Source: Candidatus Poribacteria bacterium
Lineage (GTDB): Bacteria; Poribacteria; WGA-4E; WGA-3G
Length of the DNA: 64,000 nt
Assembly: GCA_965214095.1 (NCBI GenBank)
Contig: OZ243938.1
Location: 1,888,001 to 1,952,000, forward strand
Reading direction: 5' to 3'
Position 1 is the first letter of the stretch, and every line of letters begins with the position of its first letter. The position numbers and the translations under genes were made by a program. Below are positions 42,537 through 45,688 of the stretch, piece by piece. Under the pieces are notes generated by a model. The model saw only the letters and a list, made by a program, of their open reading frames with translations, did not search any database and had not been told where the DNA came from.

Positions 42537-43289
42537 TCAACCATCATAACGGAGATTTTTGCCGTTGTCAGGTCCTCCCTGACCCCAAACCCAAACATTG
42601 CGGAAAAATGCCTGTTTTTCAGATGGTAACCCATCAATGATATGTTTTGGCACCGTCGGTTTGTGGAATTGACACCCAACAAAATTATAGCAATTAAACA
42701 CTGCAATTCGTGGACGATCCGGATTCTTCCAAGTGTCACCAGAATGACATAGGTTCTCAGTGAAGATAATCGCAGAACCAGGTGGACAACTATATGTCTC
42801 AAGGAGTGGTGAATCAACCTTACGATGTGTCTCTGGGATTTGGAAGTTCGATTTATGACTTCCGGGTAGAAACAGTGTGCCACCTTCACCTGCTTTCACT
42901 TCGTTCAATTCAAACACAACCCGTGTCAATGCTGAGTAAATTCTTCCATCATGGCATTGATAACTAAAGTTAGGGTTCACATTTCGCACACCACCGTGTG
43001 GTGGCGGTCCCCCATTTCCCTCAGACCTATAGGTGAACCAACTTGATTCCATACGAATTTCACCCAAAGTTTCTTTGAGAATATCAATTATAGTTGGATG
43101 GTCAATCAAGATTGAAGATGCACCGCCGGGAAATTGTCGCTCATGCGGAGGTAATGCCTCGGGATTTGTGCGAATTGTGTCAACTTGGGTTTTAATTTCA
43201 TTTATCTCTGAGGGTGTCAACACTTCTGGAATTAACAAATACCCTTTCAGATCAAAGATAAATTTCTGTTCTTCAGTCATAAGATTCAT
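42537..43289 (-). CDS. Phytanoyl-CoA dioxygenase (PhyH)-family protein
   Basis: FDLKGYL, PHGG, GGTLFLPGSHKSNF, FTENLCHSG..W....R. Confidence 0.85.
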   Translation of the reverse strand: MNLMTEEQKFIFDLKGYLLIPEVLTPSEINEIKTQVDTIRTNPEALPPHERQFPGGASSILIDHPTIIDILKETLGEIRMESSWFTYRSEGNGGPPPHGGVRNVNPNFSYQCHDGRIYSALTRVVFELNEVKAGEGGTLFLPGSHKSNFQIPETHRKVDSPLLETYSCPPGSAIIFTENLCHSGDTWKNPDRPRIAVFNCYNFVGCQFHKPTVPKHIIDGLPSEKQAFFRNVWVWGQGGPDNGKNLRYDG

Positions 43290-43302
43290 CTCCTCTAATC
43301 AT

Positions 43303-44560
43303 CGGGCAGGAGACCCCGCTGCTTTAGCACGGGGAGGAATGCCCGTTCCTATCTATATTGAAAGTTTAGTTTAGTTAACACCTTGAAATCTCTTTGTTTT
43401 GCACCCGTTGTCAATCGTTTCCCATCAATGCTATAGATTGAAAACAATCCTTTTGCGTTGACACCTGCTAATCTTGTCAATCCATATTTGATATGCTTGA
43501 CAAGTGTGTTCTTGACCAATCCTTCTTTTAGCAAAGTGCCACCATATCGTGAACGGATACCCCCTTTTTTCGGTTGTTCTCTGTGTAGATTGCGTCTGGC
43601 TATTGGTATAGGTGATATACAGAATATATCTGTCGTATCTGGTATGCTATCACCGCCGACAGTATGATAAGCAAGACACCAACTATCCACACAATGTGTG
43701 TCAAAGGTTTCTGCTAACTTCTGTTTAGACTTTTTCAACCCAAGCCTATCACGGATTTCCTTTGTTTCGTATCCTTGGAGTGTTAGCAGGTGCCATCGCT
43801 TCTTGATTTCAGTATAGAACCACTGCTTACCAACTTCCAATGGACTAAAAGATTGATTCCACTTTTTAGCGCGTTTGATAGTCCGTGCTTTGATGTCTTC
43901 TACACATACATGACTAATAGGATAGAGTTTAGATAACCAATTAAGTATCCTTAACTTCCAATCCCATCTCGCACGCGTGCCAGCAGGTAGACGTTCTCTG
44001 TTAGCAAGTTTGTTTGTCCTATTTTTCCGATTAGGACACTTCCGTGAACGCCTACATCTACGAAGTTCACGTCTTTTTTCAACCTTTTTACCAACCTTGT
44101 TATGTGCGTCTGCTTGCACATTCAGATAAGTATGTTTCTCTGATTTCACACTAAAGCCTTCTTTCTTACTACCAGGATCCACACCAACCACTATGTCTTG
44201 GAGTTCAGTGTCTGATGGATCAACATTTAGTCGGACGCAAAATATACCATTATTCCAAAAGGGGGTCGCTTTCCCTGTTTGTATCCAACGCCTCGCCCGT
44301 GAAGGTTTTGTAGGCATGAGAGGGTGTTGATTTTTGTCTATTACTGGAACTAAGATGTGTAAACCTCCGAAGAGTATATATTGCCCCATCCAGATCGGGT
44401 ATTCGTAGAGGAATCGGACTTGGGGAGCATCCGAAACATACATTGGACTGCCACGTTCAGAACACCCGATATATGACTGTAGAAAATAGTTTAACTTGTG
44501 GAGTGAACGCTTGGCATGCGCTTCGCACAAGCCCCGATGCTTTAGCACGGGGTTATTGAC
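43303..44560 (-). mobile_element. Non-autonomous IS200/IS605-family OMEGA element (omegaRNA + isrB), no tnpA
   Basis: Near-identical subterminal hairpins CCCCGTGCTAAAGCA(T/G)CGGGG at both ends (about 44532-44552 and 43314-43335). 5' end is GTCAATAACCCC; ATGA follows the 3' end. Confidence 0.85.
43349..44356 (-). CDS. isrB: IsrB-type RNA-guided nickase (PLMP/RRXRR + split RuvC, no HNH)
   Basis: PLMP, RARR, RuvC-I GVDPG, Arg-rich bridge helix RRELRRCRRSRK, RuvC-II VEDI, RuvC-III HCVD; no CxxC/HNH insert. About 335 aa from the ATC 7 nt after GGAGG (ORF-track start 44548 lies within the RNA scaffold). Confidence 0.85.
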   Translation of the reverse strand: MLVPVIDKNQHPLMPTKPSRARRWIQTGKATPFWNNGIFCVRLNVDPSDTELQDIVVGVDPGSKKEGFSVKSEKHTYLNVQADAHNKVGKKVEKRRELRRCRRSRKCPNRKNRTNKLANRERLPAGTRARWDWKLRILNWLSKLYPISHVCVEDIKARTIKRAKKWNQSFSPLEVGKQWFYTEIKKRWHLLTLQGYETKEIRDRLGLKKSKQKLAETFDTHCVDSWCLAYHTVGGDSIPDTTDIFCISPIPIARRNLHREQPKKGGIRSRYGGTLLKEGLVKNTLVKHIKYGLTRLAGVNAKGLFSIYSIDGKRLTTGAKQRDFKVLTKLNFQYR

Positions 44561-44582
44561 CTCCTAAACACTGTTTTGGATT
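44357..44582 (-). ncRNA. omegaRNA (about 22-nt 5' guide + about 200-nt scaffold)
   Basis: Scaffold begins GTCAATAACCCC...GGGGCTTG, the 5' hairpin typical of IscB/IsrB omegaRNAs, and lies directly upstream of isrB. The flank-derived guide is 44582-44561. Boundaries inferred. Confidence 0.72.
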
Positions 44583-44588
44583 TTGAAG

Positions 44589-44618
44589 ATTGTAGCAGGA
44601 TTCTACTTTAATTGGAAA
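44589..44618 (-). promoter_or_regulatory. Promoter driving omegaRNA/isrB/phyH operon
   Basis: Extended -10 TGcTACAAT (44597-44589) with weak -35 (TTCCAA/TTTCCA); predicted TSS near 44582. Confidence 0.5.
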
Positions 44619-44645
44619 TGTAAAATGTTTAGGAGAAAAAAAGAC

Positions 44646-44674
44646 TTGACATCGGCGACTAACTCGGTTATAAT
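44646..44674 (+). promoter_or_regulatory. Consensus sigma70 promoter of argF
   Basis: Perfect TTGACA-N17-TATAAT. Confidence 0.8.
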
Positions 44675-44737
44675 TATGACTTCTTTTCACAACTCCTCAC
44701 AACAAAACATACGAATATGACCATTGCGGAGGTTAGT

Positions 44738-45688
44738 ATGCACCTAATTACTTTAAAAGACTGGTCAGAAACAGAAATCCGAGAAACCGTAGAAAACTGT
44801 ATCAAAATCAAGAATCACCCTGAGAAATATAGGCATGCCGCGTCTGCATTGAGTCTTGCATTGCTATTTCAAAAGACATCCACTCGGACACGGTGTGCTG
44901 GAGAGATTGGAATCTTACAGTTAGGCGGACATGCACTTTATTTAGACTGGCGAACAACGAACTTCGGATTGGCAGATCTCGGAGACGAAATGCATGTCCT
45001 GTCCGATTACGTTGATATTATATTAGCACGTTTCTTGAAACATAGTGATGTCCGAAAGGCTGCGGATGCCGCATCTGTCCCAATCATCAACGGTTGTTGC
45101 GACAGATACCACCCAACACAAGCCATTGGTGATCTTATGACGATACAAGAACATCTCGGGAAGTTAGAAGGTGTTAAGGTCTGCTTCATAGGTATTCATA
45201 ACAATGTGTGTAATTCGTTGATATCCGCAGGGATGAATGTCGGACTTGAAGTAACCGTTATTGCTCCTGAAGTTAACCCTGCTGCCGTTGATGAAGAACT
45301 ATGGAGACAGGCGGAACAAAAAGGGTGCTATAAATCCATACCTACAGATCCACTTGACACAAATGCAGCACTAAAGGAAATTATTGCTGAAAACGATGTT
45401 GTCTACACAGATACTTGGTTAGATATGGAATTCTTTGCAGATCCTGACTTTGCGGAGGAACGGGAACGTCGTATGAAACTGATGATGCCCTATCAGTTGA
45501 ATCCTTCGCTTCTTAAAGGAGTTGACTGTAAGATAATGCATTGTCTACCTGCACATCGCGGTTATGAAATCGCTGGTGAACTCCTTGATGACCCACGTGC
45601 TATCATCTTTGAACAATCAGAAAACCGTCTGCACAGCATGAAAGCAATCATACTCAAATTGCTTGGACGTTCTTATAGTGAAATGTAA
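44738..45688 (+). CDS. argF: Ornithine carbamoyltransferase
   Basis: FQKTSTRT, HPTQ, VYTDTW, MHCLPAHRG, QSENRLH. Start at ATG 44738 after GGAGG. Exact substrate not verifiable. Confidence 0.85.
   Translation: MHLITLKDWSETEIRETVENCIKIKNHPEKYRHAASALSLALLFQKTSTRTRCAGEIGILQLGGHALYLDWRTTNFGLADLGDEMHVLSDYVDIILARFLKHSDVRKAADAASVPIINGCCDRYHPTQAIGDLMTIQEHLGKLEGVKVCFIGIHNNVCNSLISAGMNVGLEVTVIAPEVNPAAVDEELWRQAEQKGCYKSIPTDPLDTNAALKEIIAENDVVYTDTWLDMEFFADPDFAEERERRMKLMMPYQLNPSLLKGVDCKIMHCLPAHRGYEIAGELLDDPRAIIFEQSENRLHSMKAIILKLLGRSYSEM

Follow-up and report, generated by a model that had tools for sequence, protein, structure and literature searches.

A probable IsrB-omegaRNA transposon in the leader of a PhyH-family gene of an uncultured Poribacteria genome

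Introduction

What kind of mobile element separates the promoter of a PhyH-family dioxygenase gene from its start codon in the genome of an uncultured Poribacteria sponge symbiont, and how does it relate to the RNA-guided systems already described? The locus lies in a 64,000-nucleotide (nt) stretch of contig OZ243938.1 (assembly GCA_965214095.1, positions 1,888,001 to 1,952,000), which we call the window and in which all coordinates are given; the element occupies the 5′ leader of the host gene and is read on the reverse strand. A preliminary description of this DNA had proposed a complete IsrB OMEGA element with readable guide, scaffold, promoter, and transposon-adjacent motif (TAM). From the protein, the RNA, the boundaries, and the relatives of the element, we conclude that it is very probably a non-autonomous transposon of the IS200/IS605 family that bears an IsrB-omegaRNA (OMEGA) module. 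It is a well-preserved new example of a known system and leaves the known picture of OMEGA systems unchanged.

Among the known relatives of Cas9, IsrB nickases are the smallest, and their compactness gives them practical interest. With a 335-residue enzyme, a scaffold of about 204 nt, a defined TAM, and numerous guide/target pairs found in nature, the system at this locus is directly testable. Our literature searches found no paper that joins Poribacteria with IscB, and none that joins Poribacteria with IsrB.

Boundaries, Copies, and Recent Mobility

The extent of the element is fixed by comparison within its own genome. Five full copies occur in the assembly (5.25 Mb, 4 contigs), with identities of 100, 99, 99, 99, and 93%, and the open frames are kept in all of them. 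Read in the orientation of isrB, the copies become alike exactly from GTCAAT (44560), preceded by DNA that is different in every copy, and their likeness stops at ...GATTAG (43295). The boundary at 44560 recurs in all five and in the relatives displayed. Because the 5′ boundary of the element falls exactly at GTCAAT, the guide would be flanking host DNA; the earlier proposal of a 5′ guide drawn from the flank is borne out by a flanking sequence that varies from copy to copy as far as 44561. Eleven further short matches in the assembly cover only the last 50-60 nt of the element.

Public genomes contain 310 relatives of the element. Among the best 80 of the 310, 79 lie in records titled Candidatus or uncultured Poribacteria and one in a record titled uncultured bacterium, in keeping with the uncultured lineage guessed at the outset. 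Five copies, sharp boundaries, 310 relatives, and the covariation described below all argue against a chance resemblance.

The presence of four 99-100% identical copies at different sites implies that the subfamily transposed recently. In the two closest relatives searched, G021 and G051 (95% and 93% complete), a search for RRXRR, the Pfam family of the IsrB protein, gave no match, and their flanks are 94-95% identical to the window locus; G003, another species of the genus, yields 28 RRXRR matches, with a few copies broken by stops. IsrB copy number within one genus therefore spans 0 to 28, and this range in close relatives, together with empty and filled sites, provides a natural data set for IS200/IS605-OMEGA dynamics in sponge symbionts. 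For three sister copies (L002, L003, and L005), relatives retain scarless empty sites in which the flank runs directly into ATGA. These sites show ATGA to be pre-existing target DNA, in a family that makes no target duplication. The element itself lacks tnpA and is thus non-autonomous, so that "complete" is apt for the nuclease-RNA module and not for the transposon.

The IsrB Protein

The isrB frame ends at TAG (43351-43349) and contains exactly 335 codons when counted from the start position canonical for the family (44356). The preliminary estimate of about 335 residues is correct for that position, where the codon is ATC rather than ATG. Pfam finds a single family in the 399-residue maximal frame, RRXRR (PF14239, E 9.6e-35, residues 67-221), and neither an HNH nor a TnpB domain in the product at E ≤ 0.1. 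The closest solved structure is DtIsrB of Desulfovirgula thermocuniculi (PDB 8dmb, E 3.3e-37). A profile built from 33 family sequences matches 8dmb at E 5.2e-42 over positions 3-317 of 335, and the same profile matches IscB structures only over positions 1-124.

The individual motifs follow the same pattern. The PLMP motif (HPLMPT, residues 11-16), in which L13, M14, and P15 are invariant among the 33 sequences, belongs to an N-terminal region that aligns with that of 8dmb and of the IscB structures. The three RuvC motifs align with their counterparts in 8dmb (Table 1); the position of E153 is D in L047 in a 10-sequence alignment. An arginine-rich bridge helix splits RuvC, as in 8dmb, and the stretch from RuvC-II to RuvC-III (E153 to D224) is only about 70 residues long. 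As for the C-terminal part, which interacts with the TAM in DtIsrB, the profile alignment to 8dmb reaches position 317 of 335, and the AlphaFold2 model made from the 33-sequence alignment (mean pLDDT 57.7, pTM 0.36) is too poor for a comparison of folds. Given PLMP, a split RuvC, a bridge helix, no HNH, and colinearity with DtIsrB, we assign the protein to IsrB, a presumed RuvC-only nickase. The preliminary description of a PLMP-RuvC protein with intact D/E/D motifs and no HNH agrees with these alignments, and in these comparisons the protein does not group with TnpB. The window copy differs from the 93% copy by 42 synonymous and 24 non-synonymous changes; the resulting ratio of non-synonymous to synonymous rates (dN/dS) of 0.14 indicates that the protein is under purifying selection.

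Might the protein instead be an IscB that has partly lost its HNH domain, or a TnpB-type nuclease, with the upstream region a mere transposon end or 5′ untranslated region? The best NCBIfam match is indeed an IscB model (NF040563, guided_IscB, 94.1 bits), and the Rfam HEARO score reported below falls short of its threshold. The IscB match lies below the cut-off of 175 and spans only positions 3-157 of 314, the first half of the model, as expected of a protein without the HNH half. The Pfam result, the almost end-to-end colinearity with DtIsrB, and the short spacing between RuvC-II and RuvC-III also speak against such a protein, and the upstream region shows 33 base pairs with compensatory changes, some in helices far from the transposon-end hairpin. 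We regard this alternative as scarcely credible, the least likely of those considered here.

The omegaRNA Scaffold

The scaffold begins GTCAATAACC at 44560, precisely where the five copies become alike; the upstream region of about 200 nt reported earlier is present at that position, and its first base is the element boundary. We aligned 34 diverse scaffolds. RNAalifold on the MAFFT alignment recovered part of a structure (31 pairs, 18 with compensatory changes), and a crude all-against-all scan of alignment columns was noisy, so we assembled the structure by eye and then counted it on the alignment. Besides an outer stem and the end hairpin, it has an arm made of two helices, a long helix at the centre bearing three inner hairpins, and a final hairpin in which the Shine-Dalgarno sequence lies; two further pairings are of the loop-loop or loop-strand kind. 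Across the 34 sequences, 87.6% of the cells in the proposed 63-pair structure are paired, against 31.7-45.7% when the partners are slid; 33 of the 63 pairs show changes on both sides, and none of 500 shuffles reached any of these measures. Compensatory changes extend to helices far from the transposon-end hairpin. Covariation is convincing in the central 11-bp stem (6 pairs with compensatory changes) and in the 3-bp CAG/CUG extension (100% paired, 3/3 pairs compensated).

Against Rfam, HEARO (RF02033), the RNA nowadays recognised as the omegaRNA of IscB, gives a full-length match to the window from 44560 to 44327 (29.5 bits, E 0.0012), and the HEARO matches of the window and of loci L020 and L043 all begin at the first base of the element. 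No Rfam family attains its gathering score in the window or the further loci searched. The covariance-model check proposed in the preliminary description returned a full-length match with a score under the gathering threshold, and the upstream region also has a structure supported by covariation.

Ends, Target Motif, and Transposase

Both ends are of IS200/IS605 design, asymmetric, with subterminal hairpins and without terminal inverted repeats. The hairpin sequence at both ends is CCCCGTG-CTAAAG-CA(T/G)CGGGG; its distance from the boundary is 8 nt at the right end (5′) and 19 nt at the left end (3′). Between subfamilies the loop is constant and the stem covaries. The repetition of this hairpin after the stop codon, seen on first inspection, is confirmed at 43334-43314, matching 44552-44532.

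The target motif was read from 82 copies. Six were dropped because the end pattern missed their 3′ end, and one was a duplicate flank, which left 75 unique insertions (loci L002-L005, L020, L023, and L054-L133). The four bases past the end are ATGA in 65, GTGA in seven, and ATGG in three. An NTGA-type TAM, as first suggested, is supported for the family by these counts and by the presence of the motif in empty sites. According to the available excerpts of Meers et al. (2023 preprint), the TAM of a Geobacillus IscB element is TTCAT, the reverse complement of ATGA(A), and the IscB omegaRNA has its border at the transposon's right end; on that account, isrB here would be antisense to the active strand of the transposon.

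A possible source of transposase exists elsewhere in the genome, which encodes four full Y1 (HUH) transposase genes (L049-L052) besides one partial tnpA (together L049-L053). Each full IS605-type element encodes a 138-residue Y1 TnpA and a 420-residue TnpB, and the ends of these tnpA-tnpB elements also form a hairpin with a CTAAAG loop. The stem of that hairpin, CCCAAGT/ACTTGGG, is that of the first omegaRNA stem-loop in some IsrB subfamilies of other Poribacteria genomes.

Two side observations concern the ends. The first base of the TAM (A or G) seems to go with the bases just 3′ of the foot of the left-end hairpin, TCTCC with ATGA and CTTCC with GTGA; this pattern, which is not uniform, is what would be expected if TnpA reads its target by DNA-DNA pairing. 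Eleven solitary left-end-like modules (L006-L016), each with an outer stem, a hairpin with a CTAAAG loop, and ATGA or GTGA, can be sorted into three or more sequence families, and a TTGACA...TGTCAA palindrome precedes some of them. They could represent PATE-like elements that lack a protein, or else the ends of other IS200/IS605 elements.

The Insertion Site: Host Promoter, Guide, and PhyH Gene

The window insertion site is empty in eight relatives, so that the search of related genomes recommended at the outset was successful. In G021 and G051, the empty site runs from the -10 box TGCTACAAT, through ...GTGTTTATGGAG, straight into ATGA(A/T)TCTTATGACT, the start of the PhyH-family gene. The insertion point therefore lies about 35 nt 3′ of the host -10 box, between the Shine-Dalgarno sequence of PhyH and its ATG.

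The promoter-like site comprises TG-n-TACAAT at 44597-44589 and TTTCCA 18 nt farther upstream. The sequence TGNTACAAT is kept at the same place in 8/8 relatives with an empty site, as is the -10 box with its TG extension, and PhyH orthologues in relatives have the promoter directly upstream. Since it is conserved where the element is absent, we attribute this promoter to the host PhyH gene itself. The region contains four promoter-like sites, against 3.7 in shuffles, and the call accordingly rests on conservation and not on the match to consensus. The extended -10 of the preliminary description is thus real, at the position given there, but it belongs to PhyH and lies outside the element.

A single RNA that covers guide, scaffold, isrB, and PhyH is probably made from the host extended -10. 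From its position, we infer a transcription start site (TSS) near 44582, and only a start there would give a guide of 22 nt. In the parts of Meers et al. (2023 preprint) available to us, IscB elements are co-oriented with upstream genes, consistent with transcription from host promoters. The locus illustrates how an element whose guide lies beyond its own border depends on host transcription. The 18-mer adjoining the scaffold is unique in the genome; its eight matches with three mismatches equal the count for the reversed control.

A 10-nt inverted repeat links CTCCTAAACA (44626-44635, upstream of the host -35) with TGTTTAGGAG (44561-44570, where the guide has its final 10 nt); this may be due to chance, and its arms match less well in G051.

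Table 1. Coordinates of the element, its parts, and the invaded host leader within the window.
Feature	Position	Strand	Basis
Whole IsrB element, GTCAAT to GATTAG, 1266 bp	43295..44560	-	Extent common to four other genomic copies
omegaRNA scaffold, ~204 nt	44357..44560	-	HEARO match and covariation-supported structure
First omegaRNA stem-loop = right-end hairpin, loop CTAAAG	44532..44552	-	Compensatory stem changes across subfamilies
GGAGG Shine-Dalgarno, 3′ strand of last omegaRNA hairpin	44364..44368	-	Arrangement as SL7 of DtIsrB (PMC9581776, available excerpts)
isrB coding sequence, 335 codons + TAG, first codon ATC	43349..44356	-	Open frame; relatives have ATG
RuvC-I aspartate D60 (VGVDPG)	44177..44179	-	33/33 invariant; aligned to LAVDPG of 8dmb
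RuvC-II glutamate E153 (CVEDIK)	43898..43900	-	At least 90% among 33 sequences; aligned to TEDV of 8dmb
RuvC-III H221...D224 (HCVD)	43685..43696	-	33/33 invariant; aligned to HAND of 8dmb
Subterminal hairpin at the left end, stem and CTAAAG loop as at the right end	43314..43334	-	19 nt from element end
AGGAG, downstream repeat copy	43290..43294	-	Between conserved end and TAM
ATGA, family target/transposon-adjacent motif, flanking DNA	43286..43289	-	75 insertions; present in empty sites
AGGAG, upstream repeat copy = host Shine-Dalgarno	44561..44565	-	Window and empty sites
Putative guide region, host 5′ leader abutting scaffold	44561..44582	-	Flank differs per copy up to 44561
Host promoter-like site (TTTCCA, 18 nt, TG-n-TACAAT)	44589..44618	-	Outside element; conserved in empty-site relatives
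Host PhyH-family dioxygenase gene, leader invaded	42537..43280	-	Pfam PF05721, E 4.4e-8

Comparison with the Closest Known Systems

Four systems invite comparison, and each shares part of its design with the element in the window:

(i) DtIsrB is the nearest characterized protein. The two share PLMP, a RuvC split by an arginine-rich bridge helix, the absence of HNH, and presumably a C-terminal TAM-interacting part, at about 335-350 residues, with an omegaRNA upstream that has a 5′ guide and a Shine-Dalgarno sequence in its last hairpin, and an NTGA TAM. In the available excerpts of Hirano 2022 (PMC9581776), the DtIsrB omegaRNA is ordered as guide, first stem-loop, pseudoknots, and terminal hairpin with the Shine-Dalgarno sequence; the first stem-loop, next to the guide, is dispensable for nicking, with a role in mobility suggested; and the TAM is NTGA, compatible with ATGA here. 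The layout proposed for our scaffold agrees with this order. The similarity is moderate, however (the E-value given above). The system described here differs in its probable ATC start, its mesophilic sponge-symbiont host, and its shorter scaffold (about 204 nt, against 262 nt in DtIsrB).

(ii) The Geobacillus IscB element, as far as the excerpts of Meers et al. (2023 preprint) describe it, is likewise non-autonomous, with tnpA elsewhere and a TAM that abuts the left end; the empty donor joint is its natural target, and it is co-oriented with upstream host transcription. In contrast, IscB has an HNH domain and makes a double-strand break, whereas IsrB has RuvC only and is a presumed nickase, and the window copy has a 5-nt flanking repeat.

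(iii) HEARO RNAs (RF02033) share with our scaffold, beyond the full-length match, the opening GUCA..CCCC..CUAAAG..GGGGCUUG and the central hairpin. The scores, 29.5-40.8 bits, lie well below the gathering score of 83, and the HEARO model places the outer stem otherwise than the covariation supports.

(iv) The IS605 tnpA-tnpB elements of the same genome (L049-L052) have a subterminal hairpin with the CTAAAG loop, about equally far from the end, and a related target motif, GTGA against ATGA. They carry TnpA and TnpB instead of IsrB, and their hairpin stems differ.

Proposed Mechanism

The mechanism assumed for this family follows work on related elements (Hirano 2022; Meers et al., 2023 preprint; reportedly also Altae-Tran 2021). 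Applied to the present element, the mechanism would begin with excision as single-stranded DNA by a Y1 TnpA acting in trans from one of the four IS605 tnpA-tnpB copies, an event that would normally leave the flank joined to ATGA. The IsrB-omegaRNA guide would then pair with the empty joint beside the TAM, the non-target strand would be nicked, and recombination with a sister copy would bring the element back. For expression, the host extended -10 would yield one RNA that starts with the guide, from about 22 nt before the scaffold, and continues through scaffold, isrB, and PhyH; isrB would be translated from ATC, 7 nt after GGAGG, and the AGGAG repeat would restore the ribosome-binding site of PhyH.

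The AGGAG Repeat and the ATC Start: A Relic in the PhyH Leader?

Two features set the window copy or its subfamily apart and raise the question of whether this copy still functions. The first is an extra AGGAG before ATGA, found in the window copy only among all copies examined; GGAG occurs just once at the empty sites of G021 and G051. With AGGAG on both sides, the window copy departs from the IS200/IS605 rule of no target duplication. The ATGA reported just past the 3′ end is in place (43289-43286) but lies 5 nt beyond the conserved end (43295). The downstream AGGAG, 9 nt before the ATG of PhyH, re-creates the ribosome-binding site that the insertion displaced. Given the 5-nt offset of the TAM, canonical excision would leave AGGA, not ATGA, beside the guide-matching sequence. 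The guide is consequently aimed, as the preliminary description held, at the ancestral empty site, but perhaps not at the joint that would now be left.

The repeat is no assembly slip of this record alone, since a public contig covers 43000-43323 with 0 differences; the run that yielded it is possibly the source sample. The contigs of four runs confirm both junctions (X1, 43000-43323 and 44532-44900, with 0 differences), and none of them joins across the element. Three joints listed in the contigs skip 82-195 nt inside the element and come from less similar contigs. No contig of the four runs spans an empty allele, an absence that is weak evidence. As origins of the repeat, we considered transposition into a non-canonical site, template switching, a 5-nt insertion that was selected for restoring the PhyH ribosome-binding site, and a TnpA cut misplaced by 5 nt beyond an end, after which the element went back into the same site. 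The repeat is unlikely to descend from an ancestral tandem AGGAGAGGAG, since there is only one copy in each of the two closest relatives.

The second feature is the ATC (44354-44356) found at the canonical start codon of isrB in all five genomic copies, 7 nt past GGAGG. Relatives open with M-F/Y-V-P-V from an ATG about 7-12 nt after the GGAG of the last hairpin. An alternative in-frame ATG at 44389 has no Shine-Dalgarno sequence and lies within sequence conserved as omegaRNA; in the relative L031, whose frame was read by eye, a stop follows the equivalent ATG. In L119, from a separate Poribacteria lineage, an intact 335-codon frame runs from ATC (L119:1501-1503), and the open stretch upstream of that codon contains no ATG, GTG, or TTG. 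ATC is a poor initiator codon in model bacteria. On the strength of the dN/dS of 0.14 and of the L119 frame without a canonical start, translation of isrB probably begins at ATC, which is the likeliest reading. The recurrence of ATC in the five copies and in L119 suggests near-cognate initiation.

Could the window copy then be an immobilised or compromised relic of a genuine IsrB family, carried as a passenger in the PhyH leader? The ATC in all five copies would fit, as would the extra AGGAG, unique to this copy, which keeps the guide from lying beside a TAM after excision; the missing contig across an empty allele points weakly the same way. Several observations are hard to reconcile with decay: the four 99-100% identical copies at different sites imply recent transposition of the subfamily, the dN/dS is low and the catalytic residues are intact, and the frame from ATC is open in a second lineage, L119. 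In addition, the cut by TnpA might fall 5 nt farther out, behind TCAT on the opposite strand, and would then give back a perfect target. We therefore judge a relic to be unlikely and continue to favour a preserved IsrB-omegaRNA transposon.

Points Weighing Against This Identification

A number of points nonetheless count against reading the locus as a preserved IsrB-omegaRNA transposon, and we gather them here. Nicking, TAM use, the TSS, the RNA ends, and the ATC start are all features that we infer; because the stems of the IsrB-end hairpins in this genome are unlike those of the tnpA elements, mobilisation by the TnpA of the genome is no more than a possibility. The HEARO score of the window (29.5) is well under the Rfam gathering score of 83, and of eight further loci only two gave HEARO at E ≤ 0.01 (L020, 40.8 bits; L043, 31.2 bits). 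The RNA structure was derived from the same sequences on which it was tested, which favours it over the slid controls. The 5-nt flanking repeat is not expected of IS200/IS605 transposition, and with its TAM displaced by 5 nt, the window copy may be unable to protect itself. Finally, IsrB protein levels may be very low given the ATC codon, and the ATG at 44389 may serve as an alternative start.

With these points set against the concordant evidence from protein, scaffold, boundary, and family TAM, the identification as an IsrB OMEGA element, made in the preliminary description, appears correct.

Family Insertions at Host Start Codons

The position of the window copy is not isolated in the family, whose insertions often lie exactly between a host ribosome-binding site and the start codon. 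In 26 of the 75 insertions, a host open reading frame (ORF) of at least 100 residues has the TAM's ATG or GTG as its first in-frame start; among control ATGA sites in flanking DNA, 38 of 1309 are so placed. In 18/75, a Shine-Dalgarno-like motif is present as well, within the final 16 nt of the 5′ flank, against 27/1309 controls. In these counts, the insertions are not phylogenetically independent, and the controls are all flanking ATGA sites, coding ones included. Part of the excess is attributable to selection, which removes insertions inside genes. A literature search found no paper that links IscB and IS605 with a start codon plus a Shine-Dalgarno sequence.

One possible interpretation, which we offer tentatively and consider rather doubtful, is that the TAM serves at the same time as a start codon (ATG-A, GTG-A, ATG-G) and that homing to leaders and start codons is built into IsrB elements. 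If so, elements would gather between Shine-Dalgarno sequence and start codon, co-oriented with host genes, and the host promoter and leader would supply both transcription and a guide with a naturally short 5′ end. With transcription and guide supplied by the host, the retention machinery would work only where the host transcribes. The AGGAG of the window copy would then be a compensatory repair of the ribosome-binding site, or the scar of a non-canonical insertion. Start-codon homing would, if true, be a strategy and not a by-product of selection against gene disruption.

The same excess at host start codons could also be read as the mark of a domesticated RNA-guided regulator, one that the host, or the element itself, would use at promoter-proximal leaders to bind DNA and tune host gene expression instead of homing. 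Nuclease-dead TnpB-like repressors offer an analogy, and at this locus the guide is the host gene's own leader. The catalytic residues of IsrB are conserved, however, and a copy number of 0 to 28 in close relatives, with near-identical copies, points to a selfish mobile element; moreover, the guide matches only its own flank, and no TAM follows that match when the site is occupied. Domestication is thus very unlikely, and we retain the view of a mobile IsrB-omegaRNA transposon.

Minor Observations on Neighbouring Sequences

Three further features of the surroundings were recorded. A perfect sigma-70 consensus (TTGACA, 17 nt, TATAAT, 12/12) occurs at 44646-44674 on the forward strand, upstream of a divergent carbamoyltransferase-family gene (44717-45688). 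Upstream of the 93% copy, at L005:3480-3600 on the reverse strand, there is an RNA that resembles a PyrR-binding site (41.7 bits, gathering 54). The 93% copy itself immediately precedes a host ATG from which a frame of 434 codons runs.

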